From assembly GCA_003009755.1 (NCBI GenBank), contig PXUB01000033.1:1-16705 (forward strand): a stretch of 16,705 nt of DNA. Reading direction: 5' to 3'. Within the stretch, counting starts at the first letter, position 1. Every line of letters begins with the position of its first letter. Of the stretch, positions 3,001-16,705 are shown in pieces. The stretch is from Thermoplasmatales archaeon SW_10_69_26 (lineage in GTDB: Archaea; Thermoplasmatota; SW-10-69-26). The position numbers were made by a program, and so were the translations under genes. Below the pieces are notes generated by a model that saw only the letters and a program-made list of their open reading frames with translations, had not been told where the DNA came from and did not search any database.

Positions 3001-3691
3001 TCGTCTCTCGGTCCGGGTCGATGCAGTTGGACTCGGTCTGGCTGTGGTGGGCGTCGCCGACGAGGACGGGCAGGCCGGGTTCGGCGGTGCCGTCGTCGAG
3101 CAGGAAGGGGGAGAACAGCGCGGTGCCGGCGCCGGTGAGCTGGTCCTCGACCGCATCGGACGTGTCCAGGCCCCAGTCGTTGAGGCGGAGATCGGCGTCG
3201 ATGCCCTCTGCCGTAGCAACCGTGCCGTCGATGCGGTTGAAGTCGAGGACGGCGTCGCCCTCGACCGCGACGAGGGGAGCGGTGGAGCCGTCGGGGTTCT
3301 GGATGGTGAGTTCGGTGAGGCTGACGCCGTCGGCAGCGATGGCAAGCGTCGGATCGGCGGCTCCGTCGCCGTCGAGGATCGTCGAGCTGCGATCGGTGCC
3401 GACGATCTCGACAGGCTTGTCAACGGTGACGGTCTCTGCATAGGTGCCGGCCTCGACCTCGATCGTGTCGCCGGCGGCGGCGTGGTCGACGGCGGCTTGG
3501 AGCGACGCGAAGTCGGCGTCGCCATCGTCGTCGACGACGATCGCGGATCCCTCGTGGCTGGCGGCGGCCGGCGCGGACAGGGCCGCGAGGCCGGCGGTCA
3601 GGAGAACGGCGGCCAGCGCGAGGACGGCGGGCCTGGCGAACGTCGAAGCTGCTGAGCGAGAATCGTTGGCACGCGATCGAGTGCGGTTCAT
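1..3691 (-). CDS. Large secreted/surface protein (3'-truncated at the window edge, >1230 aa): signal peptide + 3 right-handed parallel beta-helix (pectin-lyase/NosD-like) modules + PKD + at least 2 Ig/cadherin-like (He_PIG-type) domains
   Basis: I translated this by hand and found no stop between the ATG at 3691 and position 1, consistent with its absence from the ORF track. GGGAGG lies 6 nt upstream. N-terminus MNRTRSRANDSRSAASTFARPAVLALAAVLLTAGLAALSAPAAA|SHEG. Beta-helix N-caps DFASLQAAVD..GDTIEVEAGTY, VFATIQAAVD, YVGVQEAVD; C-caps DLRLNDWG, DARLNDWS, EATCNDWG. PKD motif HEWDFGDG..PTHSYDELGSFEVELTVED (~650-900). Ig-like motifs GATFSV..LAWT..GTYVLEVTARD and NATFTV..FAWTPT..VGEHNITL. Codon usage is C-ending like the neighbouring gene. 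Confidence 0.92.
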   Translation of the reverse strand, partial: MNRTRSRANDSRSAASTFARPAVLALAAVLLTAGLAALSAPAAASHEGSAIVVDDDGDADFASLQAAVDHAAAGDTIEVEAGTYAETVTVDKPVEIVGTDRSSTILDGDGAADPTLAIAADGVSLTELTIQNPDGSTAPLVAVEGDAVLDFNRIDGTVATAEGIDADLRLNDWGLDTSDAVEDQLTGAGTALFSPFLLDDGTAEPGLPVLVGDAHHSQTESNCIDPDRETTTGGYDADGDGLGDTRWIDKDGDGDEECVFATIQAAVDFAHPDVTVAIPASDGGTLTPNTYDGPATVDRNNCADDTIDCNGNGDDTDETEAERLTGLRICSTSPDPQFEPGEPVLEDPCAANTEQTVVDAEGEEAFTVQVEAEDVTIQGLTIQNSGLSGFGGGIKAREAPGFTLQGSVLEGNVFEDESPAENQRGVQLHPDAGEGYQIGGPDAEDANTFSRWDHAGVAADANAPGTIEGNTFTEITRSAIKAGTDASPTIVENTFETNGLRAISLSGTQDAVVRDNAITLHLLETTDVDGEGSGVWVHDGAQDTLIEANDFEGQDAAAVEVSACGEATCAAETQPDGLRLRENQLNLTNAEALIVNADVEELTVDARLNDWSVYDHELVAQRATDDGSDNVLKLVPFLLPDGSPDPALPIVADTGETYVGVQEAVDAAGPEGTVLLPGSSGVDATPYVESVTIPHEGLRLCAAPGGDACRVANDQVAVQGRATDEPAIRVTADEATVAGLGLEGSTLDTSASAGLLVGDTAKNARVQNVAADGLGTGIQVDGDDAEITANTLTANDVGIAVTGTDVATADNELTANTLAVELDEARRATLANDRVNTGETGGVELAAGEAGVQPTDVTVNNTRLETTTVPLALTSGTQGLTVEATCNDWGAYHRAAIEERILDEGQDNTVEFQPWQGPNPDVTLDNGCLVEPVSSFTYEPEEPTRLDEVQFNDTSRPGSAPIVFHEWDFGDGDTSRMANPTHSYDELGSFEVELTVEDAEGMRSTTTRTVTVGNLAPALEAPIAVESAHEQDLSVNVSASSEEGDAVELSASGTPLEEGATFSVEDQGTAAPVGTLAWTDIDARDRGTYVLEVTARDEHGAETTDQVEITVTDDGPVIEPVPDPTTRLGHEVTFTANATDANGDPVELTASNVPSNATFTVENQTTAEPTATFAWTPTEDSQVGEHNITLAAEAEGLTDTQMVTVTVGEENQPPAIAIERGGSPVGDTVT

Positions 3692-3697
3692 CGACAG

Positions 3698-3703
3698 CCT
3701 CCC
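3698..3703 (-). promoter_or_regulatory. Shine-Dalgarno ribosome-binding site for the gene starting at 3691
   Basis: Minus strand reads GGGAGG-ctgtcg-ATG (6-nt spacer). Confidence 0.75.
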
Positions 3704-3731
3704 ATGCTGACCGAAAGCCAGCAGTTGCGGG

Positions 3732-3737
3732 TATAAA
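3732..3737 (-). promoter_or_regulatory. Putative archaeal TATA box for the beta-helix gene
   Basis: TTTATA on the minus strand, ~41 nt upstream of the ATG, in an otherwise GC-rich region. The spacing implies a short leader that would just contain the SD. The BRE match is weak. Confidence 0.5.
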
Positions 3738-3836
3738 CAGCCAGCCCTGCATAAGTGCTGTCCGCCAACCGGGGTAAGCAACACCTTCACGCGACCTGTT
3801 CCCACGTCTACCAGCCGTTGGAGGCGGTGGCGGACT

Positions 3837-3872
3837 GGCCCCGGCCTCCGTCGTTGATGGGAGACCGGGGCC
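3837..3872 (-). terminator. GC-rich stem-loop just downstream of the giant protease gene (terminator or mRNA 3' stabiliser)
   Basis: Minus-strand RNA GGCCCCGGUCUCC-N10-GGAGGCCGGGGCC: a 13-bp stem with one G:U pair, starting 16 nt after the TGA. No U-tract follows. Confidence 0.55.
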
Positions 3873-3888
3873 GTGGTGGGGTGGCCGA

Positions 3889-6800
3889 TCAGCCGTCCTT
3901 GTACGGCTGGTAGATCACGTCGTTGCCGTTCTCCTCGAACCGCTGTTCGACGAGCAGGTCGGTGTAGACGCCCCAGTCGTTGTACCGGGCGTCGTAGGTC
4001 AGGCCGTTCGTGGCGTCGGTGAAGGTCAGGCAGACCGACGTGTCGAGGGTGCAGGTGGACGCCCACATCAGCGAGCCCGTGGGGGCTGCTTGGCCGTCGA
4101 CGTCCTCGACGAGGACGCCCTCGTTCAGCTCGTCGAGTTCGACGTGCTCGATCATCGTGCTCGGCGCGGTCACGTGGGCCCCGCGAGCGGTGTCGTTCAG
4201 GCGAACGCCCTGGAGCGAGGTCCCCTCGGCGGCGAGGGTGAGGGCGGTGCCTTGGGGGGCGGTCAGGTTCACGCTCGGCTCCGACAGGCAGCGATCGGCT
4301 GCGTCGGTGCTACCGCACAGCGTCACGCCCGGCGTGTCGACGGTGAAGGGGCCGGTGTAGTTGCCGGGCTCGACCCACACGGTCCCGTCGGTCGGGACGG
4401 CGGCCAGGGCCTCGTCGATCGTCTGGTAGCCCAGATCCTCGGAGGTGCGCGCCGCGCGGGGCACGTCCTCGACAGTGATCTGTACGCTCTCCTCGACCGT
4501 CACGTACGTGTCGTTGGCGCTGAACGTGACGGTGTAGGTGCCGGCCTGGTCGGCGGTGGGTCGCCACGTCAGCTCGCGGGCGTCGGCGTCGAAGGTGGCG
4601 CCCTCGGGCAGCCCGGAGGCGTCGACGGTGAGCTCGGCCTCGGTGTTGTCGCGGTCGCTGACGTCGACGGGGACCCTCAGCGTCGTCATCTCCTCGACCG
4701 TCTGGTCGGGGATGGGGGCGATCTCGGGGGCGCGGTTCTCCACGGTGACGTCGACCGTCGCCCGGGTGCTCGTCGCGCCGTCGTCGTCGACGACCTGCAC
4801 GGTGGCAGCGAAGGTGCCCTGCTGCTCGTAGGTGTGGGTGAGCGTCGGGTCCTCGGTCCGGATGGGATCGGTCCCGTCGCCGGGATCGAACACGTACTCC
4901 GCGATCGAGCCGTCGACGTCGGTGCTGTTCCCGGCGTCCAGCGTGCGCTCGGTGTACGTCAGGTCGCGCTCGGGCGAGACGTCGAGAGCCGCCCTCGGGG
5001 CTTGGTTGAGGACCTCGATGGTGTGCGTGGCGTCGTCGGTGGCGCCGTTGCTGTCCTCGACGGTGAGCTCGACGGTGTAGGTCCCCTGGGCTTCGTAGGT
5101 GTGGTTGACCGTGGCTCCTGTCAGCGAGGTGCCGTCCCCCATCGACCACCGGTAGCTTTGGATCGCACCGTCGGGGTCCTGGCTGTCGGTCGCGTCGAAC
5201 GTGGCCGGCGTGAAGGTGGCGATCTCGTCGGGAGCTTGGACCGCGGCCGTGGGTGCGAGGTTCTCCGCGACGATCTCGACGGTGTCGAGGGTCGACCAGC
5301 GGCCGTCGTCGTCTCGAACGGTCAGCGTGGCGTTGTACGTGCCGGGCTCGGTGTAGTTGTGCTCGATCGTGGCCGCATCCGTCGTGACGGAGCCGCTGTC
5401 GTCGCCGGGGGTGAACCGGTAGGTGGTCACGGTCCCGTCGGGGTCCGCGGAGGCGGAGCCGTCGAGGGTGACCGTCGTGTTCATGTCGGTCGTCGTCGGC
5501 GAGGCGTCGAGGACGGCGTCGGGTGCCGTCGTGACGGTGACGTCGTTGCGCGTGGGTCCGTTCATGTCGAGCCCGTCGAAGTAGCGGGCCTCGATGCCGA
5601 CGTCGCCCTTGGACGAGCTGGCGTCCCAGTCGTAGGTCCAGGTGGCCCACGAGCCATTGGGGCCGGTGGCGGTGGCCGGTCGCCAGTCCTCCTCGGCGCC
5701 TAGCGATTCGTCCGCGGTCTCCTCGCGGAACTCGACATAGCGATCGCCGACGGCGGCGACGTCGGTGGTCGCGGTGTCCTGTCCGGCGTCGTTGGTGGCG
5801 GTGACGTTGACGTCGTAGCGCCCGGGCTCGGTGTAGGCGTGCGTGACGGTGCTGTTATCGGTCGTCGTCAGGGTCGACCCGTCCCCGAACTCCCACTCGT
5901 AGGTGACCGGTGAGGTGCCCTGCGAGAGGTTGACGGTGAAGTTCACGGGTTGGTCGACGTCGGCTCGCGAGGGGTCGGCCGCGAACGACTGGATGCGCGG
6001 CGGCTCGTTGTCGGCGACGTTGTCGACGGCGAACGCGACGGTGTCGCGCACCTGGTCGCCGTCCTGGGTCGTGTAGAGAGCGCTCGCGGAGTAGTCGCCG
6101 TCTCCGACCTGGGTGCTGTCCCAGCCCGTGGACCAGCTCTGCACCCCGTCGGCGTCGGTCGGGCCGAAGACGGTCTCGCCGTCGGCCAGCCGGGTGACGG
6201 TCACCTCGACGCGTTCGTCGGTCGTCTCGGCTTCGGGGGTGGCGGTCACCGTGTCGGAGGTCGGGCCTTCGACGCCGTCAGCGACGGCGCTGACAGTGTA
6301 CCCGTAGGATTGGCCGTTGATGACGTCCGTGTCGGTGTAGCGGGTCTCGGTGATCTCGGCGACCTGGGACCCATCGCGGTAAACGCGGTAGTCTTCGGCG
6401 CCGTCGACGGGCGTCCAATCGAGGTGGACCTGCTCGTCGCCAGCGGTGGCCTCGAGGCCGGTGACTTGGGCGGGCGCGGTCGGCTCGGTGACCTCCGGCA
6501 CGGTCAGGGACCAGGGGTTGTCGGGACCGCCGCCGAACACGGCGTGCGGCGGGCCGAAGTAGGCGTCCAGCTCCTGCGAGGAGTCGAACGTGATGGCGAG
6601 CTGGAGCGTGGAGCCGGCCGCCAGCGTAGTCGGCGCACCCGAGTCGAACGTCAGATCCACCATCCAGGGGTACTCCTGGAAGGTCAGCGGGCCGACCGTG
6701 GCGCCGGTCTCGCCGACCGCGCCAGGCTCGCTGGCGGTACCGACCTGAGCGGAGACGTCGATCGGGGCCAGCGCGCAGTCCCCGCACGGGAAGCCCGAGA

Positions 6801-9800
6801 CGCCGGTGCGGACGGAGACGGTCTCGCCGGCGGCGATCTCGAGGTCGCTGTCGAGCGTGGTGGTGAACACCATCTCGAGGGGTTCCTCGGTGCAGCCGAA
6901 CGCGGTGTGCGAGGCGCTCTCGCCGGTCGGCTCGGTCTCGGTCAGCGGTCCCTGCAGCCCGGTGCAGCTGTCCGTTGCGCCGCTGCGCTGCTGGAGCGTG
7001 GCGAGCACGTCGTCTGGGTGGAAGGTGCGCGGCTCGACGGTGCCCACCGATCCGTCGTCGATGCTGTCGGTGAACGGCAGGGTGAGCTGCCAGCTGTCGG
7101 TTTCCTCGCCGCGAAGGTCCACGCTGTTGTCGTCCTGCGTTCGGTAGGTCACGACGACGTCGACGGCGGCGCCCTTAGGCACTGTGCCGTCCCAGTCGTC
7201 GTCGACGAGGACGTCGAACGTGACGGTGTTGGGTTGTTGGGCGATGAAGTTGGCCGTCGTGGAGCCGCTTGCTCGCTTCTGCCCGTCGACCAGCACGTCG
7301 AGCTGGATCTCAGCCTCGATGTCGGCCGGGGCCGAGAACGTGAGCTGGGCCTGCCCGACCCCGCCGGGTCGCACGAGCAACTCCTGGCTGGGAGCCGGGA
7401 GCAGCGGGAACGTGTCCGTGCCGTCGCCGGCGACGCTGATTGACGTGGAGCCACCGGCGTTGCTCTCCGGATCGTCCTCGTCGGCGCTGGTCCACTGCGA
7501 GTCGATCGTGCTGTCGCCGTCCTCGTCGCGTAGGTGGAAGAACAGCGTGTCCTGGCTGGGGCTGGGTTCGCCGCCGGCGTGGCCGTGGGCTTGCACGGTC
7601 ACCGTGTCCGCGACGGTGGAACCGTCGAGGAGGGTGGCCGTGAGCGTGAGCTCGTGGGTGCCGGGCTCCTCGTAGACGTGGTCGAGCACCGCGGGCGGGG
7701 TGCCGAACCCGGTGAGGCTGGTGCCGTCCCCCCAGTCGACGCGCCACTCGGTGATGGTGCCCTCGGTGTGGGTCCGGATCTGCGTGGAGAGCGGCGCCTT
7801 GCTCTCGGTGGGCGTGAGCGGTTCGACGAGGATGCCGCCCTCGCTCGTGGTCGACGTGGAGTCGGCGCTCGTCGGATCCTCGGCGGTGCCGGCGATCGTG
7901 ACGGTGCCATCGACGGTCTCGTCCTGGGCGGGCGTCTCGATCGTGACCGACGGTCCGGGGGTGTCGGCCTCGTTGTTGACCGTGACGCCAACGACGTCTT
8001 CGTCGGTTGTGGAGCCGGCGGTGACCCGCGCGGTGATGGAGGTGTCGCCGTCGTCGGCCTGCGTCGTATCGAAGGTGGCCGACCAGTCGGCGGTCGCGTC
8101 GACCGTCTTCGTGCCGAGCTCGGGGATCTCGACGGTGACCTGGCCCTCGGAGGCCTCGGGGCTGACGGTGACATCGGTGCCGGCGGGAGCCTGGCCGGTG
8201 TCGGCGGGGCCGCTGGCGCCGTTGGCGCCGAGGGACACGATGCCGAGCAGATCGGTCAGCCTCTCGCCGTCCTGGACGGAGTTGCCACCGGAGTCCTGGA
8301 TCGCGGTCTTGGAGACGTTGAAGGCGACGAGGTCGTCCTCGGGCGCCCAGTAGCCATCCACGTACTGCTCGAAGCTCCACTGGCTGGCGGCTTCGCCGGG
8401 CGCGGGCTCGGCGCGGGTCAGCAGCCGGAACTCGGGGGTCAGGTTCGTGTCCTGGTTCTCGGCGCTGAAGACGGGGTTGATCTTGCTATCCAGCCAGAAC
8501 TCCTGGTCGGCGTAGCTGAACTGCACTCCATAGCGCAGATACTCGGCGTTCGTCGGTTGCTCGGGGAGGTCTGCGACCCCGATCCCGAGGTTGAACCGGT
8601 CGTCGCTTGGCCCCTCGTCGCCCCAGGCGTACCCGGCGACCATGTCGGCGCGGTCGAGCGGGAAGCTGCCGGCCCCGAAGAGGCTGGCGTCGCCCTCGGG
8701 GTCCGTCCACAGCGGATCGTCCAGCGACAGCGAGGGGTCCGGCGAGGGAACGTGGGCATCCCCGGTGACGGTCAGGTCGTCGGACACGCTTGCGCCGTCG
8801 TCGGGCTCGGTGATCGCGACGGTCAGGTCGTCGGCGACGGTAACTGTGGTCGTGTCGGTGGCTTGTTGGTCGTCGGCGTCGGTGACGGTGAGCGTGACGT
8901 CGTACTCCCCGGCCTGCGTCCAGGTGTGCGCGATCTCGGCGCCGGTCTTCGTGTTGTCGTCGCCGAGCTCCCACTTATACGAGTACTCGGGGGTCCCGCC
9001 GGAGGCCGAGGCCGACAGCGTCGTCTCGACGTCGGGCGCGGTCTCGTAGGGGCCACCCGCGTCCGCGGTGAACGCGTCGTCGGGATCGTAGCGATCGCGG
9101 GCCTCCTGGACGGCGAGGTAGGCGTCCACGTTGCCGTAGCCGACGACGGGCGCCCACTGCCCGGTGGGCTCTTGGTCGCCAACGTGGGCCGTCTGCGTGA
9201 GGATCTCCTTGACCTCGGTGGGTGTGAGGTCGGGGTTGGCCTCGTACATGAGAGCGACGACGCCGGCCACGATCGGCGCTGAGAAGCTGGTGCCGCTCGA
9301 GCACTCGTTGTAGGCGTTATCGTTGGCGCTGGTGGGCATGGCCACGCAGACGCCGGGAGCCATGACCTCGGGCTTGTCGATCGTGGTGTCGGAGGCGGCC
9401 ACGCTGCCGGAGGCCCCGCAGGGGGAGATCCAGCCCTTCGCGAACCCGCCGGCACCGTGGCAGGGGACGTCGTCGATCCGGGAGACGCTGTTCAGGGTGT
9501 CGATGTTGCCGACGGTGATGGCTCGCTCGGCGGTCGCCGGGGAGCCCATGGTGCCGAAGTTGCCCGAGGAGGTGACGACGACGAGGCCCTGCTCGGCGGC
9601 CTGGTTGATGCACGTGTCGTCGGCGCTGCTGATGGGGACGACCGATCCGTAGCTGAGGCTCGCGACGCGGATGTCCGCCGGGTGGTCGATCGTCTTTTCC
9701 AGGGCCTCGCAGGTGCGCGTTGCAACGGTTCCCGTGTTCGGGTCGGGCTCGGACAGGGCCTGCACGTTCAGGACACCGGCCGCGGGCGCCGCGCCCACGT

Positions 9801-12800
9801 GGGTGGCGGAGGGGCCGCCGGTGCCGGCGGCCGCGCCCGCGCTCTTCGTGGCGTGCGCGGCGTTGGACTCGTGGTCGAAGATCGCCAAGCGGTCGATGAT
9901 CTTGGAGTCGCTGGCGTTCTGTGTCTCGTTCGCGAAGGTCTGCCACTCGAAGGCTTCGTGGGATTCGCGTACGCCGCTGTCGAAGTTGGCGTAGCCGACG
10001 TCGCGACCGGTGAAGCCCAGGCACTCGCTGGCGCCCCAGACGCACTCAGAGCCGTAGGTGGTGGATTGGCGGGCCTTGGTGTTGGGCACGTTGAGGGCCA
10101 GGTGCTTCTCGGCAGGCGGGGACCACTCGACGCGGATCGCGCCGTCGTGGTCCAGCAGGTCCCGCACGTTCTCGGCTTCGACGCCCTCCAGGGTGACGGC
10201 GTCGATCAGCCACAGAGCCTTGGCACGGTCGGCGTCGGCGAGATCGCCAAGCGCCTGCTGGTCGTCCTCGGTCGCCTCACGGTCGAGCAGGACCTTCACG
10301 TCGAAGGGGCCCGAGGAGGAGTCCATCTCCTCCTCGAGGGGATCCTGCACGCCATCGCGGTCGGCGTCGTCGTCGAACGGGAGCGTCCACATGCCGGCTT
10401 GCGTGGTGGACGTGGACCCGTCGTCGGTCGAGCCGTCTTGGCCCGATCGGTCGCTGGTGGTGCCGTTGACGGCCACGGTCTCGGGGTCGAGGAAGGCCCC
10501 GTCGGCGGGCTCGTCGATCTCGACGGGCCCGCTGTCGGTGACGAGGACGGTCACCTCGTCGGGCGGCGAGGTCTGCGATCCGTCGTAGTACTCGGCGGAG
10601 ATCGTGACCTCGGTCCCGTCGGCGATGGACGAGAAGTCGTGGTCGAGGTGCCAGTCGCTCCAGTCGCCGCTATCGTCGACGGCTTGCTGGAGGGGGCCAT
10701 CGGCCACGCGCACGTAGACGCCCTCCTGCTGGGGTCCGACGTCGATCGTCGTGCTCGCGGTCGCGGAGCGGTCGCCGGTGTCGGTGACGGTGAGCTCGGC
10801 GTCGGCGTTGAGCTCGCTCTCGTAGGTGTGGTTGACGGTGAACGTGCCGTCGTTGTTCAGCGGAACGTCGAGAGGGGCTGAGCCGTCGCCGGGGTCGAGC
10901 TGGACGGTGTCGATCGGGTCCGAACCGGGGCTCACCTCGCCGGTGAACGTCACGGGTAGCGGAGCGTTACCGGTCGTCGGGTCGGCTGCGAACGCCGCGA
11001 CCGTCGGCGGGTCGGCCTGCTGTGCGTCTTGCAGCTGGTAGTTGCGGCCGGTATCGGAGGAGGATGTTGGCGGAACCGTTTCCTCGGGGCCGCCGCCCGG
11101 AGCGCGGTCCACGGTCGGAAGCACGCTGACGGGGCTGGGCGCCCCGGGCACGCGCATCCGGGACTGGAGGTAGGGCTCGGTGAGACGGTCGCCGACCTCG
11201 AGCGCGTCTCCACCGAGGGCCCCTTCCCAGGCGTCGAAGGGGATCGTGGCGGTGAGGGTGTCGTCTTGGATCTCGACCTCGAACCCGCCTTCGACCTCCG
11301 CCCACCCGGCCCCCTGGGCACCGCAGCCCAGGCAGTAGGCGGAGGCGCTGAACGAGGGGTTCTGGGCACCGTCGGAGAGGATCCAAAGCCCCAGCGTGCG
11401 GCTCTCGTGCTCGAAGTTGAACTCCCACTCGGCCGCGGAGGAGCCGGGGTGGGGCAGTGCCGGATCGAACCCGTGCACGTCGACCGTGGCGGTCAGTGAG
11501 GAGCCGTCGTTGGCGAGGAAGGCGTTCTCGAGGTCCATGCTGCGGTAGGGGTCGGGCAACTCGGCGGGGTCGTCCTCGGCGAGGACGCGGAACCCGTCAG
11601 CGTTGCCGCTGTCGTCCCCGTCACCTTGGCTCGCATCCGCGACCGGCAGCTCGATGTGCGAGGGCGTGGTCGGGCTGTCGTAGTACACGCTGTAGGCGGG
11701 GCCGACGTTCGCGTATTCGACCCAGAAGCGGAGCTGGAGCTCGGCGCCCTCGTCGACGACGATGTCGCCATCATCGTCGGTGGGAACGGTGAGGTTGCTG
11801 GTCGACTCGTCGTACTCGGAGCCGTTCAGGACCTTCTCGTAGTTCTTCCCGAGCTTGAGCGGGATCGAGGCCTCGGTGGGGATCTGGTTGGGGAACGGAC
11901 CGTCGTCGGTGTACGTGGAGGCCAGCGTCACCGTGCCGCTGTCCGTGACGGCGTTCAGTTCGGCGTTGAGGCCCTTCACGAATACGGTGTTGCTCCACGT
12001 GGAGATGTGGAGGTTGGCGGTGGCCTCGTCGACGGTGTCGGGGTCATCGTCGCCGAGATGGAGCTCCTGGGCGAGAGGCCCGCTGTCGATCTGGAGGGGC
12101 AGCGTGTCGAGGCTGCCGCTGTGGACGGTCGGCGCCTCGCCGTGGGGCTCGGCGGTCGAGAGGTCGCCGCCCGCGACGCCGAGGTCGCCGCCTTCGATCG
12201 TGGCGGGCGCCGTCAGCTCGGCGCCGTCGGCGTCGGGTGCTCGGTCGTCGGGGGTGAGCCCGTCGGCCGAGGCGGTGTAGGATGTGACATGTAGGTTCGT
12301 GATGGGATCGCCAGGGGAGGCGCCGATCTCCGTCCACGGGATGGTGACGGTCACGGCGTCGTCGGCGAGGTCGGCGGTCACCGTGGCACTGGTGTCTGCA
12401 TCGACGGCGTCGGTCACCGTGGGTCCGTTCGCGCCGAGCTGCACGGCGTACCGGTGGGCTTGGCCGGCGTGCTCGAAGGCGAGATGCCAGGCGGTCGGGG
12501 CCAGGCGGGCGTCCTCGACGTCGCCGGCGAGGTCGGCGGTGACGTCCAGCGTCTCCTCGTCGGTGGCGGTCCCGAGGCTTCGGATGTCGGCTTCGCTCGT
12601 GGATGCGTCTCCGGCGTCGTCGGTTGTTGCGGTCTGCGTGAGGTCGCCGTCGACGCGGGCGTCGAGTGTGAGTTGGGACCGGTAGAGGTCGGAGCCGTCC
12701 CACTTGAGCCGAGTGGCCTCGCTCCCGGCGAAGAAGTCCGGCGTGAGGCCGACCATGATCTTGTTGCCCTGCTCGAAGGTGTAGGAGTCGGCGCCGGAGT

Positions 12801-15687
12801 GCTGGTAGGCCAGCCGGTTCTGCATGCAAGCGCCGTCGACCGGGTCGTTGTCGAGGAGGGTGGCGTTCGCGTACTCGTTCCCCGGGTTGCTCAACGCGAG
12901 CTGGCTCTGGCCGTCACTGATCTCGTACACGTCAGCGAAGAACAGGCCACCGCCGCTGTCGGCGATGCAGGTCGTGAGCGAGGCGCCTTGGGCGACCGTC
13001 CAGGGGTTGCCGTCGGTGTCGGTGATCGTCTCCACACCCTGGGCCAGCGTGATGTCCGCGGGCAGGGGCTCGGAGACGAAGACAGCCGGGTGCTCCTCGA
13101 CGACGTCAGCCTCGTCGGCGAAGGTCTGCTGGGCGATACCGCTGAGGCCACCGCCGACGAGCGCGTTCTTGGGATCGTTGCCCGGCGTGGGGGACATGGT
13201 GCCTTTGACGGTGTAGGCGTCGTCCGGAGCCGGTTCGGGCGCGTCGGCGAGCGTGCCGTTGTGATAGTGGAAGCCGATCGTTCGGGTCTCGTCCGTGGGC
13301 GTCACGCATTCCTCGACCGTGTTGGTGTCCGTGGCGCCGGTGCTGTCCTGGGTGCGAACCGCGAAGCAGGTCTCCTGGCCAGCGGTCAGGCCGTCGACGG
13401 TCGTGGAGAGGTCGGTCGTCTCCTGGATGGCGGTTTCGTAGTCGATCTCGGGGGTGCCCTGGTAGACGAGATACGTGTAGGGCTGTTCGCCGCCGCTGGC
13501 CTCGTCCCATGCGAGCTCGGCCGTGGTCTGCTCGGCCTCGGCGGTCTTGGCGGTCTGGAGGCCCGCGAAGGTTTGCGGGGTCGTGTCGGAGCCGCCGGAA
13601 CTGCCGGCCGTTCCGGCGATCCGCGTCTCGCCGGACACGCGATCGCCCTCGCTCGGGGTCGTGATGGAGACCGAGGGGGCCTCGACGTCGCTGCCGACGG
13701 TCGCGGTCGTTGTGGCGGTAGCGGTGGTGCCGGTGTCGTCGGTGACGGTTAACGTGACGTCGTAGACCCCCGATTGGTCGTAGGCGTAGGTGAAGCTTGC
13801 ACCGGTCTCCGTGGTCCCGTCACCAAGGTTCCAGGTGAACTCGTAGGGGGAGTCGCCATTGCTGGCGGTCCCGGTGAACGCGATCTCCTGGCCGGTCGCG
13901 GCGGTGTACGGGCCGCCGGCGTCGGCGGTGAGGGAGGTGGCCAAGCCGCAGACCTCTGTCACGGTCGTCGAGGGCGTGGCTCCGTTGGGCTGGAGGACGT
14001 TGGCCCAGGCCCAGCAGAGCGCGCCGAAGGCGGAGACCTCGCCGTAACCGAACCCGTTGTTCCACGTCAGTCCGTCGGCGCCGGGTCCCTCCCACTTGTC
14101 GATCATGTCGTCGGGGACGCCAGCCGTCCGGTAGTCGGCGGCGTGGATGAGGGCGTCGCGGACCGGATGCTCGCCCGGCACGTGGTCGCCGTTGTTGTCG
14201 AAGCCGCGTCCGTCGGGCTCCATCAGGTTCTCGCCACCGGTCTCGTCGCTGACCTCGGCACCGGCCTGCAGCAGGAGGGCCGAGATGCCCGCGACGTGCG
14301 GAGTAGACATGCTCGTCCCCGTCTTCTCGGTCCGTGTGCTGATGGCGCCACATTCCGTGATGGCGCAGGCCGCCTCGATATCGGTGCCCGGGGCGGTGAT
14401 GTCGGGCTTGCGGTGACGGTCGGCGAGATCATCAGCGCCGGTGGCACCACCGGCAGCGCCGTCGCCGCCTCCGCCCTCGCTGTTGGGTCCCCGGCTGCTG
14501 GAGGGGTTGATCCGGTCGTCGATGCGCGAGATCGTGGAGCGATCGTCGGCGTTCGCGACGCCGAGGGCGCCGGCGGCGTTGCCGGGGCTGGAGATGCCGT
14601 TCTCCTTGTCCCCGAAATCGCACAGGCTGGAGGGCTGGGGACCGCAGTTGCCGACGGCGATCGTGACGGCGACGCCCTGCTCGGCCAGGTTCGTGATCGC
14701 GGACTCGGCGCTGCCGGCGTTGGGGCCGCCGCGACCTGCCGAGCCGAAGCTGAGCGTGGCGACGTTGATCTTGTCGTCTTCGCTGGCGCCGCACTTCGGC
14801 TCGCCGTTCTCGATGGCCTGGTTCCACTCGTGCACGAACTCGAAGCCGCGGAGCGAGCCGCCCAGCGAGACGATGCCACCGCTGATCTCGACCTCCACGA
14901 GCTGGGCCTCGGGCGCGGTCCCGCCGGCCGCCTCAGCGGGGTTGCCGACGGCGGTCGAGGCGACGTGGGTGCCGTGGCCGGAGCGGTCCTGGTTGTCGAC
15001 GCACTCGATCGTCTGCGGTGTCGAGACGTCGGCTCCCGCGACCCGCTTGCCGCTCGGGAAGGCCGGGTTGGTGTTGTCGACGCCACTGTCGAGCACCGCG
15101 ACGACGGAGCCTTCACCCTGGTATCCCAGCGTACCGGCGGTTTCGCCGGCGTAGGGGCCCTCGAGTGCGCCAGCGTCCCGGGACTGGGTCGCCGGTGCGC
15201 TGACGTCGAGCGTGCGGTTGAGTTCGTAGTCGTGCTCCACGGCGACGACGCCGTCGAGGTCGCCCAGCGCGCCGACTTCGTCGGCGGGGACTTGGGCGTT
15301 GATCGTCGGGATGAAGCTGAACCGATAGGTCTCGACGGCCCCGTGGGAGGAGGCGAGGCGGTCGACGTCGGTCTTCGTCGGATCGTGGTCGTAGGTGAGC
15401 AGGACGGGGACGAGCTTGTCGGGGTTCCCGTCATCGACGTGCCCTTGGGCGATGGCCTCGGCTTCGTCGTCGACGAGGTTGTCGTCCTCGTCGAAGGCGT
15501 CGAGCCACGGTCCGACCCAGTCGGGGGCCGAGCCGCCGCTCGTCGTGGCGGCGGTACCGGTCGGGACCACGGAGGTCAGGGGTCCCGCCAGCATGGCGAC
15601 GGCGAGGAGCACGGGGAAGAGAGTCGTTTCCGAGAGCTTAGCAGCCGATCCGACGACGCTGGAGAACTGTGTGAAGCGATCGCTCAA
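3889..15687 (-). CDS. Giant (3932 aa) secreted double-subtilase: two S8 serine peptidase units with PKD, FN3, Ig-like, DOMON-like, jelly-roll and beta-helix domains
   Basis: Uninterrupted ORF. TTG start with GGGAGG 8 nt upstream. Hydrophobic N-terminal segment LFPVLLAVAMLAGPLTSVV..TAA. Two full S8 catalytic sets: D200/H238/N347/S459 and D1903/H1945/N2043/S2134. Eight PKD motifs (WNLGDG, LDPGDG, WELGDD, VDWGDG, WEFGDG, FTPGDD, WSMGDG, FDPGDG), two FN3-like domains and a terminal beta-helix ending DARYNDWG..QPYKDG. Confidence 0.95.
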   Translation of the reverse strand: MSDRFTQFSSVVGSAAKLSETTLFPVLLAVAMLAGPLTSVVPTGTAATTSGGSAPDWVGPWLDAFDEDDNLVDDEAEAIAQGHVDDGNPDKLVPVLLTYDHDPTKTDVDRLASSHGAVETYRFSFIPTINAQVPADEVGALGDLDGVVAVEHDYELNRTLDVSAPATQSRDAGALEGPYAGETAGTLGYQGEGSVVAVLDSGVDNTNPAFPSGKRVAGADVSTPQTIECVDNQDRSGHGTHVASTAVGNPAEAAGGTAPEAQLVEVEISGGIVSLGGSLRGFEFVHEWNQAIENGEPKCGASEDDKINVATLSFGSAGRGGPNAGSAESAITNLAEQGVAVTIAVGNCGPQPSSLCDFGDKENGISSPGNAAGALGVANADDRSTISRIDDRINPSSSRGPNSEGGGGDGAAGGATGADDLADRHRKPDITAPGTDIEAACAITECGAISTRTEKTGTSMSTPHVAGISALLLQAGAEVSDETGGENLMEPDGRGFDNNGDHVPGEHPVRDALIHAADYRTAGVPDDMIDKWEGPGADGLTWNNGFGYGEVSAFGALCWAWANVLQPNGATPSTTVTEVCGLATSLTADAGGPYTAATGQEIAFTGTASNGDSPYEFTWNLGDGTTETGASFTYAYDQSGVYDVTLTVTDDTGTTATATTTATVGSDVEAPSVSITTPSEGDRVSGETRIAGTAGSSGGSDTTPQTFAGLQTAKTAEAEQTTAELAWDEASGGEQPYTYLVYQGTPEIDYETAIQETTDLSTTVDGLTAGQETCFAVRTQDSTGATDTNTVEECVTPTDETRTIGFHYHNGTLADAPEPAPDDAYTVKGTMSPTPGNDPKNALVGGGLSGIAQQTFADEADVVEEHPAVFVSEPLPADITLAQGVETITDTDGNPWTVAQGASLTTCIADSGGGLFFADVYEISDGQSQLALSNPGNEYANATLLDNDPVDGACMQNRLAYQHSGADSYTFEQGNKIMVGLTPDFFAGSEATRLKWDGSDLYRSQLTLDARVDGDLTQTATTDDAGDASTSEADIRSLGTATDEETLDVTADLAGDVEDARLAPTAWHLAFEHAGQAHRYAVQLGANGPTVTDAVDADTSATVTADLADDAVTVTIPWTEIGASPGDPITNLHVTSYTASADGLTPDDRAPDADGAELTAPATIEGGDLGVAGGDLSTAEPHGEAPTVHSGSLDTLPLQIDSGPLAQELHLGDDDPDTVDEATANLHISTWSNTVFVKGLNAELNAVTDSGTVTLASTYTDDGPFPNQIPTEASIPLKLGKNYEKVLNGSEYDESTSNLTVPTDDDGDIVVDEGAELQLRFWVEYANVGPAYSVYYDSPTTPSHIELPVADASQGDGDDSGNADGFRVLAEDDPAELPDPYRSMDLENAFLANDGSSLTATVDVHGFDPALPHPGSSAAEWEFNFEHESRTLGLWILSDGAQNPSFSASAYCLGCGAQGAGWAEVEGGFEVEIQDDTLTATIPFDAWEGALGGDALEVGDRLTEPYLQSRMRVPGAPSPVSVLPTVDRAPGGGPEETVPPTSSSDTGRNYQLQDAQQADPPTVAAFAADPTTGNAPLPVTFTGEVSPGSDPIDTVQLDPGDGSAPLDVPLNNDGTFTVNHTYESELNADAELTVTDTGDRSATASTTIDVGPQQEGVYVRVADGPLQQAVDDSGDWSDWHLDHDFSSIADGTEVTISAEYYDGSQTSPPDEVTVLVTDSGPVEIDEPADGAFLDPETVAVNGTTSDRSGQDGSTDDGSTSTTQAGMWTLPFDDDADRDGVQDPLEEEMDSSSGPFDVKVLLDREATEDDQQALGDLADADRAKALWLIDAVTLEGVEAENVRDLLDHDGAIRVEWSPPAEKHLALNVPNTKARQSTTYGSECVWGASECLGFTGRDVGYANFDSGVRESHEAFEWQTFANETQNASDSKIIDRLAIFDHESNAAHATKSAGAAAGTGGPSATHVGAAPAAGVLNVQALSEPDPNTGTVATRTCEALEKTIDHPADIRVASLSYGSVVPISSADDTCINQAAEQGLVVVTSSGNFGTMGSPATAERAITVGNIDTLNSVSRIDDVPCHGAGGFAKGWISPCGASGSVAASDTTIDKPEVMAPGVCVAMPTSANDNAYNECSSGTSFSAPIVAGVVALMYEANPDLTPTEVKEILTQTAHVGDQEPTGQWAPVVGYGNVDAYLAVQEARDRYDPDDAFTADAGGPYETAPDVETTLSASASGGTPEYSYKWELGDDNTKTGAEIAHTWTQAGEYDVTLTVTDADDQQATDTTTVTVADDLTVAITEPDDGASVSDDLTVTGDAHVPSPDPSLSLDDPLWTDPEGDASLFGAGSFPLDRADMVAGYAWGDEGPSDDRFNLGIGVADLPEQPTNAEYLRYGVQFSYADQEFWLDSKINPVFSAENQDTNLTPEFRLLTRAEPAPGEAASQWSFEQYVDGYWAPEDDLVAFNVSKTAIQDSGGNSVQDGERLTDLLGIVSLGANGASGPADTGQAPAGTDVTVSPEASEGQVTVEIPELGTKTVDATADWSATFDTTQADDGDTSITARVTAGSTTDEDVVGVTVNNEADTPGPSVTIETPAQDETVDGTVTIAGTAEDPTSADSTSTTSEGGILVEPLTPTESKAPLSTQIRTHTEGTITEWRVDWGDGTSLTGFGTPPAVLDHVYEEPGTHELTLTATLLDGSTVADTVTVQAHGHAGGEPSPSQDTLFFHLRDEDGDSTIDSQWTSADEDDPESNAGGSTSISVAGDGTDTFPLLPAPSQELLVRPGGVGQAQLTFSAPADIEAEIQLDVLVDGQKRASGSTTANFIAQQPNTVTFDVLVDDDWDGTVPKGAAVDVVVTYRTQDDNSVDLRGEETDSWQLTLPFTDSIDDGSVGTVEPRTFHPDDVLATLQQRSGATDSCTGLQGPLTETEPTGESASHTAFGCTEEPLEMVFTTTLDSDLEIAAGETVSVRTGVSGFPCGDCALAPIDVSAQVGTASEPGAVGETGATVGPLTFQEYPWMVDLTFDSGAPTTLAAGSTLQLAITFDSSQELDAYFGPPHAVFGGGPDNPWSLTVPEVTEPTAPAQVTGLEATAGDEQVHLDWTPVDGAEDYRVYRDGSQVAEITETRYTDTDVINGQSYGYTVSAVADGVEGPTSDTVTATPEAETTDERVEVTVTRLADGETVFGPTDADGVQSWSTGWDSTQVGDGDYSASALYTTQDGDQVRDTVAFAVDNVADNEPPRIQSFAADPSRADVDQPVNFTVNLSQGTSPVTYEWEFGDGSTLTTTDNSTVTHAYTEPGRYDVNVTATNDAGQDTATTDVAAVGDRYVEFREETADESLGAEEDWRPATATGPNGSWATWTYDWDASSSKGDVGIEARYFDGLDMNGPTRNDVTVTTAPDAVLDASPTTTDMNTTVTLDGSASADPDGTVTTYRFTPGDDSGSVTTDAATIEHNYTEPGTYNATLTVRDDDGRWSTLDTVEIVAENLAPTAAVQAPDEIATFTPATFDATDSQDPDGAIQSYRWSMGDGTSLTGATVNHTYEAQGTYTVELTVEDSNGATDDATHTIEVLNQAPRAALDVSPERDLTYTERTLDAGNSTDVDGSIAEYVFDPGDGTDPIRTEDPTLTHTYEQQGTFAATVQVVDDDGATSTRATVDVTVENRAPEIAPIPDQTVEEMTTLRVPVDVSDRDNTEAELTVDASGLPEGATFDADARELTWRPTADQAGTYTVTFSANDTYVTVEESVQITVEDVPRAARTSEDLGYQTIDEALAAVPTDGTVWVEPGNYTGPFTVDTPGVTLCGSTDAADRCLSEPSVNLTAPQGTALTLAAEGTSLQGVRLNDTARGAHVTAPSTMIEHVELDELNEGVLVEDVDGQAAPTGSLMWASTCTLDTSVCLTFTDATNGLTYDARYNDWGVYTDLLVEQRFEENGNDVIYQPYKDG
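3892..4440 (-). other. C-terminal short right-handed beta-helix module
   Basis: YQTIDEALAAV..GTVWVEPGNY..VTLCG (N-cap) through YDARYNDWG..YQPY (C-cap). Confidence 0.75.
4465..4737 (-). other. Putative Ig / cadherin-like (He_PIG-type) domain
   Basis: NRAPEIAPIPDQTVEE..SDRD..ASGLPEGATFD..LTWRPTADQAGTYTVTFSAND..VQITVED. Confidence 0.8.
4738..5525 (-). repeat. Three tandem PKD domains in the C-terminal stalk of the giant protease
   Basis: Three ~88-aa units with the pattern AP.A...P......T.D...S.D.DG.I/V..Y....GD......H.Y...GT....L/V.V.D..G. Confidence 0.88.
6235..6485 (-). other. Fibronectin type III-like domain 2
   Basis: PAQVTGLEATAGDEQVHLDWTPVDGAEDYRVYRDG..YTDTDVINGQSYGYTVSAV..EGPTS. Confidence 0.85.
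9100..10392 (-). other. Internal propeptide + subtilisin S8 catalytic domain 2 (approximate bounds)
   Basis: LWLIDAVTLEGVEAENVRDLLDHDGAIRVEW (pro), GFTGRDVGYANFDSG, AHATKSAGAAAG, VVVTSSGN, KPEVMAPG, SGTSFSAPIVAGVVALMYEANPDLTPTEVKEIL, GYGNVDAYLAV. Confidence 0.9.
13297..13587 (-). other. Fibronectin type III-like domain 1
   Basis: TFAGL..AELAWDEA..YTYLVY..TTVDGLTAGQETCFAVRTQD. Confidence 0.75.
14015..15525 (-). other. Propeptide (I9-like) + subtilisin S8 catalytic domain 1 (approximate bounds)
   Basis: YRFSFIPTINAQVPADEVGALGDLDGVVAVEHD (pro), GYQGEGSVVAVLDSG, GHGTHVASTAVG, IAVGN, SSSRGP, KPDITAPG, GTSMSTPHVAG, GYGEV. Confidence 0.93.
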
Positions 15688-15695
15688 GCTTGACG

Positions 15696-15701
15696 CCTCC
15701 C
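15696..15701 (-). promoter_or_regulatory. Shine-Dalgarno site supporting the TTG start at 15687
   Basis: Minus strand reads AGGGAGG-cgtcaagc-TTG (8-nt spacer). Confidence 0.7.
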
Positions 15702-15765
15702 TGGGCGGCCTCCGCCTTCGGATCGGCGCCGAAGACGTCGGACCTCCAAGGTGAATGACCCACCC

Positions 15766-15792
15766 AAACAGAAAAGCGTTCCGTTGGAACGC
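15766..15792 (-). promoter_or_regulatory. Perfect inverted repeat followed by a T-rich tract (terminator of the upstream gene, or operator/promoter of the protease gene)
   Basis: Minus strand GCGTTCC-AAC-GGAACGC (15776-15792) immediately followed by TTTTCTGTTT. Confidence 0.5.
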
Positions 15793-15890
15793 CCGTCAGT
15801 GAGGCGGCAACTCGGGTCGCCTGCCCGGTTCGCGCTCGGTCCATCCGGTCGACGACGCGCTGGCGGTGCAGCTGGTCGGGTCCGGCCGGG

Positions 15891-16705
15891 TCACCCGGAC
15901 AGGGGTCCGGTCACCTCGTACCCGATCCTCGACCGGTCCACGAGCACGCCCGGCGTCGCATCCAGCCCCGACTCGCGCGTCACCTCGACCACCAGCTCGT
16001 GCTCACCCTCCACGTTCGACCCCGGCTGCGAATCCGTATCGAACGGCAACAACGTCGCCACCAGCCCCTCACTACTCGTCTCCGTCCGCGTGACCGTCAT
16101 CTCACCCAAGTCCGCGTGCGAGACGGTCAGATTCACCCCAGCACCGGGCACGGCTTGGCCGACCTCGTCGACGACGTACACGCCCGCCGTCGGGCGCTGT
16201 TGGATGCCGACCTCCCCCTCCGGATGACTGACGAGATCGGCCTGCGCGATCACCGCATCCTCCACCACGATCGTGACGTTGGCGGTATCCTGAGCGCCGA
16301 GGTGGTCACTGACGGTCACGGTGGCCGTGTAGACGCCGGCCTCCGGGCCAACCCACGTCGCCTGGGCCCCATCCTGGGATCCGCTGCCATTGGCTGGCAG
16401 CTGCCAGTCGATCGAGATCGGACGATCCTGCGGATGCTCGCTCGGGCTGGCGTCGACGCGGGCGGGCGAGATGCCGTCCGTGACGCGGACCTCCGCCGCG
16501 GTCGTGTTCGCCGTTGGCCCCTGGTTGGCCTCGACGGCCACGGTCGCGTTCTGGTTCGTGACCCGCCCCGCCTCGTCCACGGCCGTGATCGTGTAGGTCA
16601 CGTCCTGGCTGCCGGCGGTGGCCACGGTCTCCTCAGCCACCCACACGCCATCGACCAGCTCGGCGTCGATCGTCGAGCCGTCCACGGTGAAGCTCACCCC
16701 AGCCA
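15891..16705 (-). CDS. 3' end of a PKD/Ig-like domain surface protein (5'-truncated, >270 aa)
   Basis: The frame stays open past the GTG at 16697 to the window edge. Ig-like tail YTITAVDEAG; PKD-like NQGPTA..VDASPSEHPQDRPISIDW..GVYTATVTVSDHLGAQDTANVTIVV; final Ig-like domain VVDEVGQAVPGAGVNLTV..TSSEG. TGA at 15891. Confidence 0.85.
   Translation of the reverse strand, partial: AGVSFTVDGSTIDAELVDGVWVAEETVATAGSQDVTYTITAVDEAGRVTNQNATVAVEANQGPTANTTAAEVRVTDGISPARVDASPSEHPQDRPISIDWQLPANGSGSQDGAQATWVGPEAGVYTATVTVSDHLGAQDTANVTIVVEDAVIAQADLVSHPEGEVGIQQRPTAGVYVVDEVGQAVPGAGVNLTVSHADLGEMTVTRTETSSEGLVATLLPFDTDSQPGSNVEGEHELVVEVTRESGLDATPGVLVDRSRIGYEVTGPLSG

Follow-up and report, generated by a model that had tools for sequence, protein, structure and literature searches.

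How does a protein fold that carries four domains of one immunoglobulin-like type (Ig-like domains), each of them broken in two by a stretch of chain longer than the domain itself? The question is raised by a DNA stretch of 16,705 nucleotides (nt) from Thermoplasmatales archaeon SW_10_69_26 (contig PXUB01000033.1, positions 1 to 16,705 of the forward strand), referred to as a whole as the window. Apart from its flanks, it is filled by a single open reading frame (ORF) on the minus strand, which encodes a protein of 3932 amino acids (aa). In an initial annotation of this DNA, four first halves and four second halves of a Big_7-type Ig-like domain had been noted in the protein, ordered like balanced brackets, and it was proposed that multi-domain cassettes had been inserted into the same loop of each domain, two of them inside another insertion. 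The analysis reported here makes it probable that the gene product is a giant secreted or surface protein of the archaeon in which four interrupted Ig sandwiches, two of them nested inside a third, re-close around their cargo.

Eight half-domains and the loop at which they break

The four N-halves (strands A-B) and the four C-halves (strands C-G) lie within the one ORF, and no intact copy of the domain accompanies them. Residue i of the protein corresponds to nt 15687-3(i-1) of the window, a relation that reproduces every coordinate of the initial annotation. Since circularity was to be avoided, the hidden Markov model (HMM) was derived exclusively from unrelated proteins in which the domains are intact and in tandem, 500 domain copies being taken from the proteins of the representative search described below. 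This intact-domain HMM found the same pieces as had been claimed:

3889..15687, minus strand: whole ORF, P0001, 3932 aa (ORF call)
13606..13680, minus strand: N1, aa 670-694, after a PKD domain and before a Gly/Ser linker; HMM match aa 670-727, profile positions 2-59, 21.0 bits, its tail a weak over-extension; Big_7 positions 1-30, E 0.014
10534..10725, minus strand: Ca, strands C-G, aa 1655-1718, putative partner of N1; HMM match aa 1633-1718, profile 15-99, 27.9 bits
10456..10530, minus strand: N2, aa 1720-1744, separated from Ca by a 3-residue link; HMM match aa 1722-1752, profile 5-34, 4.5 bits; 52% identity with the N2 orthologue
8755..8826, minus strand: N3, aa 2288-2311, after a PKD domain; HMM match aa 2289-2315, profile 4-30, 10.5 bits; predicted local distance difference test score (pLDDT) 92-93; structure search
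7972..8148, minus strand: Cb, aa 2514-2572, one sandwich with N3 as read from the model; HMM match aa 2517-2572, profile 38-99, 26.5 bits; AlphaFold2 model and structure search
7882..7956, minus strand: N4, aa 2578-2602, following Cb by seven residues; HMM match aa 2579-2610, profile 3-34, 25.5 bits; AlphaFold2 model and structure search
6019..6216, minus strand: Cc, aa 3158-3223, putative partner of N4; HMM match aa 3144-3223, profile 17-99, 16.8 bits
5530..5748, minus strand: Cd, aa 3314-3386, putative partner of N2; HMM match aa 3332-3386, profile 44-98, 23.0 bits

In the HMM scan no stretch of the protein fits the whole profile, the only long, weak matches being PKD and He_PIG domains. A contiguous sandwich of ~70-100 aa is thus replaced in every copy by two pieces with 202-1569 aa between them. 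The four breaks all lie in the B-C loop, at profile positions ~30-37, so that the proposal of one and the same split loop holds. With the Pfam family Big_7 (PF17957), the N-halves align to positions 1-30 (N1 with 16.5 bits, N3 with 13.3 bits), and the family's gathering score of 24.1 bits is reached only in the segment aa 2401-2640, by two stretches that correspond to Cb and N4 (25.5 bits). Domain finders miss such halves: a search of the whole genome that holds the window (G000) with PF17957 gave no match at E<=1e-5. The family is present in 264 of the 401 sampled genomes of the phylum. The junctions Ca/N2 and Cb/N4, with their 3 and 7 residues, resemble the inter-domain junctions of tandem intact domains.

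The order of the pieces, N1-Ca-N2-N3-Cb-N4-Cc-Cd, is as initially described, and it recurs in a homologue of 3986 aa from another family of the same archaeal class (G002:C4, L019:3836-15796). The two proteins are colinear from aa 585 to ~3740 of the window protein at ~40% identity, and the intact-domain HMM finds in the homologue the same eight halves in the same order. Orthologous N-halves are 36-52% identical and orthologous C-halves 37-55%, whereas the Gly/Ser/Thr linkers beside the N-halves are, by eye, gapped or barely conserved. Because the same eight pieces stand in the same order in a ~40% identical homologue, with 36-55% identity between orthologous halves as in the surrounding folded domains, the pattern is real and conserved. 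These observations support the assignment of the pieces as true halves of one domain family, all broken in the same B-C loop.

Around the colinear core the two proteins differ. The homologue ends in an intact Big_7-type domain (aa 3889-3982) that the window protein lacks, and its head (L019:3836-5515, aa 1-560) contains no subtilase (S8) domain and only a weak BNR/Asp-box match (E 0.019). Head and tail modules are exchanged around a core that is conserved.

In the search of the class, the homologue matched residues 5-322 of the 325-residue query with 41% identity, and 9 of the 21 class genomes gave any match. An index of 5.8 billion proteins, searched with the whole length, gave 12 matches among 1707 candidates; the window's own protein alone matched at full length, the others reaching 4-14% coverage via PKD domains. 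With aa 2290-3075 the same index returned only the window's own protein, and a shorter-length search returned none. The 24 loci found in species-representative genomes were all partial PKD/Ig matches, and none of 104 pattern matches in metagenome contigs was a relative. The representative search with aa 2286-2610 gave 298 matches at E<=0.001. Among the best 150 of these 298, 149 match only query residues 166-325 (Cb and N4), the exception being the window's own protein, and the five Cb-N4-matching proteins that were fetched simply repeat the intact domain in tandem. In other genomes of the phylum (six loci, L076-L081), strong Big_7 matches restricted to profile positions 13/18-70 were found and were rejected as split domains; they are domains without strand A or with a longer A-B loop.

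The N3-Cb model and the cargo

Of the four presumed pairs, N3 and Cb lie closest together, and it is for this pair that a structural model was obtained. In the AlphaFold2 run with aa 2281-2612, rows were added to the alignment only over the contiguous Cb-N4 stretch; they comprised 26 naturally occurring junctions of the type C(i)+N(i+1) as well as 76 C-halves, the 76 distinct intact domains having been cut from loci of related genomes. N3 and insert 3 kept two alignment rows, and no row links N3 to Cb. A block alignment of N-half-only and C-half-only rows was dropped, as MAFFT either placed every one of the 76 N rows at N4 or scattered fragments over the insert. The resulting model has a mean pLDDT of 77.2, with values of 92-93 for N3, 87-95 for Cb, 94 for N4 and 50-91 for the insert. 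The N3 strands occupy model residues 9-14, 19-21 and 24-32, that is, through strand B.

The model was compared with 48,161 representatives of the Protein Data Bank (PDB), and the best 50 rows were considered. In 46 of them, single contiguous Ig/FN3/PKD-like domains of ~80-100 residues span the model from residues 1-9 to residues 291-296 with 77-95 aligned positions. The top match is 6tn6_A (Z 12.9, root-mean-square deviation (rmsd) 1.6 A over 87 residues, chain 401-494), which identifies the N3-Cb pair as an Ig-like sandwich fold; 9kvu_A (Z 10.8) and 3pe9_A (Z 10.4, chain 1-90) follow. The other 4 of the best 50 rows match the insert, from model residues 37-39 to 229-233, or to 290 in the case of 7uwu_A. 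Since matches with 77-95 aligned residues span both ends, the 201 residues between are skipped, and the N-terminal strands can only be those of N3. N4 (model residues 298-322) lies outside every sandwich range despite its deeper alignment support. The alignment ranges indicate that the sandwich consists of model residues 8-32 and 234-292 and that residues 39-229 form a separate domain. N3 and Cb would thus close over insert 3 as one beta-sandwich, a split Ig-like domain with folded cargo. Foldseek against the PDB gave nothing at E<=0.001, only generic two-Ig matches, and a sequence search of the PDB with aa 2286-2610 gave nothing better than E 0.94.

The rows over Cb and N4 alone raised the pLDDT of N3 from 30-50 to 92-93 despite its two rows, and that of the insert was raised as well. 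Adding rows over the host only is a workable way to fold orphan inserts when the host domain is well populated.

The insert lengths of about 960, 1570, 200 and 555 aa given initially agree with the measured 960, 1569, 202 and 555 aa, which are 2-17 times the length of the host domain:

10726..13605, minus strand: insert 1, aa 695-1654 (960 aa), an FN3-like stretch, ~760 aa without a Pfam family, then PKD (Pfam; colinear with the homologue)
5749..10455, minus strand: insert 2, aa 1745-3313 (1569 aa), linker, second S8 domain, PKD, two inner split domains with their inserts, PKD (Pfam; homologue alignment)
9175..9981, minus strand: second subtilase (S8), aa 1903-2171, within insert 2 (best Pfam stretch)
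8149..8754, minus strand: insert 3, aa 2312-2513 (202 aa), one beta-rich domain (structure search of the model; no Pfam family)
6217..7881, minus strand: insert 4, aa 2603-3157 (555 aa), PKD, ~370 aa without a Pfam family or a relative outside G002, FN3 (Pfam; homology searches)

The Pfam scan of the whole protein left three long stretches without a family (aa ~800-1560, 2312-2513 and 2700-3070). The second of these is insert 3, which has the homologue as its sole sequence relative. Its model resembles domain C of glucodextranase (1ulv_A 772-1020, Z 9.6, 153 aligned residues, rmsd 3.3, model residues 39..229), although a Z in such a range may reflect only a common arrangement, and it also resembles the DOMON-like subunits 2ivf_C and 7b04_C. 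The glucodextranase-C/DOMON-like fold serves ligand or carbohydrate binding. By eye, aa ~1040-1190 and ~1430-1560 resemble insert 3. The module at aa 2701-3075 (window 6463-7587) has no Pfam family and no relative besides the homologue in any search; it occurs in 2 of the 401 sampled genomes of the phylum, G000 and G002, which share its invariant GxPCGDCALAPI motif and a YFGPPHAV motif. In the ESM Atlas, aa 2701-3072 retrieved only unnamed clusters with low recognition. Two similar halves can be seen within the module by eye.

Evidence that sockets are kept while cargo changes comes from a paralogue in the same genome (L082, G000:C34:32776-47530), which was found by full-domain profile scans of the genome, BLAST and pairwise alignment, and which thus answers the call for homologues with different inserts at the same position. 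Cut off by the end of the contig, the protein is at least 4918 aa long. Over its first 726 aa, which comprise the S8 head, PKD and an N1-like half (N1'), it shares 50% identity with the first 700 of the window protein. There follow PKD, ~400 aa of unassigned sequence and PKD, an insert of ~578 aa with no BLAST similarity to insert 1; then Ca'-N2' (1305-1396, aligned with window aa 1640-1746); PKD, FN3, a subtilase and ~560 aa; and Cc'-PKD-Cd' (2659-2895, aligned with window aa 3150-3353). Since N1', Ca' and N2' are kept around an unlike insert, the first sockets are conserved and the cargo varies. A half-profile scan of G000 at the thresholds used showed no ORF besides the window's own with a clear pattern of orphan N- and C-halves.

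Probable pairing and nesting, and competing explanations

Putative partners for the remaining halves can be derived from the topology of the fold. In a standard Ig domain, strand G ends at the pole opposite to the start of strand A, and a C-half without strands A and B would lack half of one sheet and expose its core. With strands G and A at opposite poles, an N-half cannot serve the C-half directly before it. On the condition that each N-half precedes its C-half, N1-Ca is the sole choice for Ca; with N3-Cb modelled, either N4-Cc and N2-Cd (nested) or N2-Cc and N4-Cd (crossing) remain. The nested form is favoured because it alone results when contiguous modules are inserted. It also makes tandem neighbours, Ig1-Ig2 and Ig3-Ig4, of the C-halves that are most alike, Ca/Cd (30-35% identity) and Cb/Cc (28-39%). 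Trees of N-halves and C-halves were too weak to assign partners. The order N2-N3-Cb-N4-Cc-Cd fits a host-within-host scheme of the RrgA type, A1-B1-C-B2-A2, with N3-Cb as the modelled pair among its members. Parsimony and the tandem-like junctions Ca/N2 and Cb/N4 thus suggest the pairs N1-Ca, N4-Cc and N2-Cd, and the split domains are probably nested. Of the insertion scheme first proposed, the part that stands most firmly is a single N3-Cb sandwich with a separate 202-aa insert and N4 outside; the other pairings and the nesting are deduced, and the paralogue contains a C-half without a detected partner.

In the most plausible model, the protein would possess a backbone with four Big_7-type Ig-like sandwiches, each interrupted between strands B and C by a cargo module. 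The chain would leave a socket in the stalk after strand B, build the cargo, return and complete the sandwich, strands A-B and C-G being reunited, so that each cargo projects laterally from a small socket domain and has its two ends next to each other. Ig1 (N1+Ca) would carry the 960-aa module. Ig2 (N2+Cd), directly after Ig1, would carry the 1569-aa module, inside which would lie the second subtilase, Ig3 (N3+Cb, whose 202-aa domain resembles domain C of glucodextranase or DOMON) and Ig4 (N4+Cc, with the 555-aa module). The cargo would then comprise a glucodextranase-C/DOMON-like domain, a subtilase with PKD domains and two large modules without relatives outside G002. Such a branched, compact display scaffold would hold binding or catalytic modules off the stalk axis. 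We infer both this function and that closure is intramolecular rather than intermolecular.

Several findings weigh against this model. A balanced order of four N- and four C-halves arises in 14 of 70 random orders (Catalan number/binomial), which makes the order by itself weak evidence. In Ca and Cc, the alignment to the profile starts as early as positions 15-17 and takes in the last strand of the PKD or FN3 domain before it, which leaves room for a strand supplied by a neighbour. The similarities among the N-halves, with N1 closest to N4, do not mirror the grouping of the C-halves (Ca with Cd, Cb with Cc), although pieces of ~25 residues are too short for their grouping to weigh much. In the paralogue the halves follow one another as N C N C C N; neither N3' nor Cb' nor N4' could be detected, and one C-half has no detected partner. 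Either an N-half has diverged past the profiles or a C-half can persist without one, which is the chief reason not to take the bracket count as proof. A single pairing of the four is seen in a model, where it is read from alignment ranges and aligned lengths, and the first AlphaFold2 run, with aa 2200-2615 and a two-row alignment, was uninformative (mean pLDDT 44.2). Finally, inserts 2-17 times larger than their hosts run contrary to a survey of 2.7 million domains, which describes insertions as consistently smaller than hosts (PMC13114784).

Part of these findings would be explained if only the short-range pair N3-Cb closes and Ca, Cc and Cd are five-stranded domains completed or shielded by their neighbours, the matching N-halves being leftover two-strand linkers. 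The unpaired C-half of the paralogue, the backward reach of the Ca and Cc alignments and the confinement of the models to N3-Cb are all in keeping with such partial closure. Arguing against it is the conservation of the strand A-B pattern in all four N-halves of the ~40% identical homologue (36-52%) next to linkers that are barely conserved. The exposed core of a sandwich without strands A and B and the equal numbers of N- and C-halves in both proteins point in the same direction, and partial closure is regarded as unlikely.

Slightly less probable still is closure between molecules, in which strand or domain swapping would lead to oligomers or a surface lattice. With partners 555-1569 aa apart, closure in trans is sterically possible, and extracellular filaments of archaea are described as being built by donor-strand complementation (bioRxiv 10.1101/2024.12.30.630787). 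In three of the pairs the results do not distinguish cis from trans. However, the N3-Cb model closes in cis with high predicted confidence, effective concentration should favour cis, and equal numbers in a non-crossing order in two distant homologues are what is expected from successive insertions into one chain. A complex prediction was made with three chains, N1 (aa 664-700), Ca-N2 (aa 1650-1752) and Cd (aa 3312-3390), of which Ca-N2 was the partner to be scored. It gave scores of 0.68, 0.69 and 0.69, as against 0.00 and 0.00 in controls where another chain stood in for the partner and 0.57 where one stood in for chain 3; it was counted neither for nor against.

Crossing pairs such as N2-Cc and N4-Cd are very improbable. 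Four pairings are possible once N1-Ca is fixed, if an N-half precedes its C-half; structure predictors cannot tell similar N-halves apart, and N1 resembles N4 while Ca resembles Cd. Yet N3-Cb closes in the model, the simple insertion of contiguous modules cannot give crossing pairs, and nesting places the most similar C-half pairs in tandem neighbours, as tandem duplication would.

A circular permutation in which each C-half folds with the directly following N-half (Ca+N2, Cb+N4) is extremely improbable. The two stretches are contiguous, and 149 of the best 150 of the 298 matches align Cb+N4 as one stretch, but those that were fetched consist of intact domains in tandem, where a C-half is part of one domain and the N-half after it part of another. 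The 3- and 7-residue linkers are normal inter-domain junctions, strand G ends at the pole opposite to the start of strand A, and judging from the model ranges it is N3 that completes Cb, N4 lying outside. Two N- and two C-halves would be left as orphans.

The gene, its setting and known systems

The remaining features of the protein lie at its two ends:

14038..15120, minus strand: first subtilase (S8), aa ~190-550 (Pfam; D/H/S motifs by eye)
3889..5529, minus strand: C-terminal part, aa 3387-3932, PKD domains, He_PIG and a ~190-aa tail without a family (Pfam)

The protein is very acidic, the G+C content of the window is ~70%, and the N-terminus of P0001 is, by eye, hydrophobic and signal-like. 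Pfam assigns to the 3932 aa two subtilase (S8) domains, at least 8 PKD domains, FN3 and He_PIG. The Peptidase_S8 HMM (PF00082) matches the whole protein with E 7.5e-60 in two stretches, which are the two copies. By eye, the first copy displays the motifs DSG, HGTH and GTSMSTP and the second FDSG, AAHAT and GTSFSAP; both are putative proteases. Subtilases usually remove an N-terminal pro-segment, and aa 1745-1902 (window 9982-10455), between N2 and the second subtilase, look by eye like such a segment; Pfam found no Inhibitor_I9 domain in aa 1745-1902. If a pro-segment is removed by the second subtilase, the chain would be cut within insert 2, between N2 and Cd, and the Ig2 sandwich would become a non-covalent clasp that holds two halves of ~200 kDa. 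In the same reading, the Big_7-type domain would be a reusable socket from which this archaeal lineage makes branched giant proteins, with four sockets here, two of them nested inside a third, and the same sockets with other cargo in the paralogue. This extension of the model is speculative and more likely wrong than right by a wide measure.

The genome G000 comprises 2.8 Mb in 49 contigs and is archaeal, as its small-subunit rRNA fits the archaeal model (1497.8 bits) better than the bacterial one (1108.8 bits). Downstream of the gene, a protein with beta-helix/NosD, PKD and He_PIG domains has its signal-like start near window 3691, is encoded on the minus strand and runs off the window; upstream, the C-terminal end of a PKD protein is encoded at 15891-16703, also on the minus strand. 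The flanks (1-3888 and 15688-16705) thus likewise encode large secreted proteins, forming a surface-protein gene cluster.

As an architecture the scheme is less novel than the initial annotation implied. Split, cargo-projecting Ig-like domains are described in RTX adhesins (PMC12077191, PMC10865825), nested insertion in the pilus adhesin RrgA (PMC5333627) and nesting of up to six levels in the domain survey, which reports insertions in 20% of multidomain proteins (PMC13114784). A full-text search of an open-access library found no paper that joins split Ig-like domains and archaea.

Should the model be correct, split domains that project cargo would not be peculiar to the RTX adhesins of bacteria, and archaea would use another host family and another break point to build branched proteins of ~400 kDa. 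Drawings that show the giant surface proteins of archaea as linear beads on a string would be incorrect in that case. Natural hosts of 90 aa would tolerate inserts of up to 17 times their own size, which is of relevance to the engineering of domain insertions.

The closest parallel is offered by the RTX adhesins MpIBP, FrhA and AhLap studied by the Davies laboratory, whose split Ig-like domains project ligand-binding domains, as documented by crystal structure 9CSE (PMC12077191) and by the work on FrhA (PMC10865825). As presented there, the Ig-like sandwich of a giant surface protein is discontinuous, the cargo, which includes carbohydrate-binding modules, buds out with adjacent ends, and the sandwich is completed afterwards. 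Nesting also occurs: the RTX beta-roll is interrupted by a vWFA domain, which is in turn split (PMC12077191). Function as in these adhesins is likely for the window protein by analogy. The adhesins are described as Gram-negative, type-1-secreted proteins with RTX repeats, with one domain of ~15-30 kDa per split and the split after a single first strand (PMC10865825, PMC12077191). The window protein, by contrast, is archaeal and combines a Big_7-type host, split after strand B, with four sockets per chain and multi-domain inserts of 202-1569 aa that include a subtilase. No RTX-repeat family appeared in the Pfam scans, which covered the entire protein, and no sequence relationship was found between the window protein and the split domains of the adhesins.

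In RrgA of Streptococcus pneumoniae, D3 is inserted in D2 and D2/D3 in D1, and separately made halves of D2 reassemble in trans (PMC5333627). As in the window protein, sandwich domains are formed from N- and C-terminal pieces, a structure solved for RrgA and proposed here from sequence and one model. RrgA, as described in that paper, is ~890 residues long; its two nesting hosts, with CnaB or other folds, are locked by isopeptide bonds and its cargo is vWA-like, whereas the window protein has four hosts of one family and far larger cargo. In the phosphatidic acid phosphatase lipin/Pah, N-Lip and C-Lip co-fold as one Ig-like domain across 250-500 residues; these proteins are characterised as eukaryotic and intracellular, with a single split at the E/E' hairpin and a largely unstructured linker, and their sequence is unrelated to that of the window protein (PMC7066176).

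The intact tandem arrays of Big_7 (PF17957) belong to the same family as the sockets, whose halves match profile positions 1-30 and ~35-100 and whose Ca/N2 and Cb/N4 junctions are like those of the arrays; the arrays are contiguous, whereas the window protein has no contiguous copy. The principle of a split, cargo-bearing sandwich is thus known. The novelty here is moderate and lies in its occurrence in an archaeon, with a Big_7 host broken after strand B, four sockets of the same family, two apparently inside a third, and inserts 2-17 times the size of their hosts, one of them with a protease.

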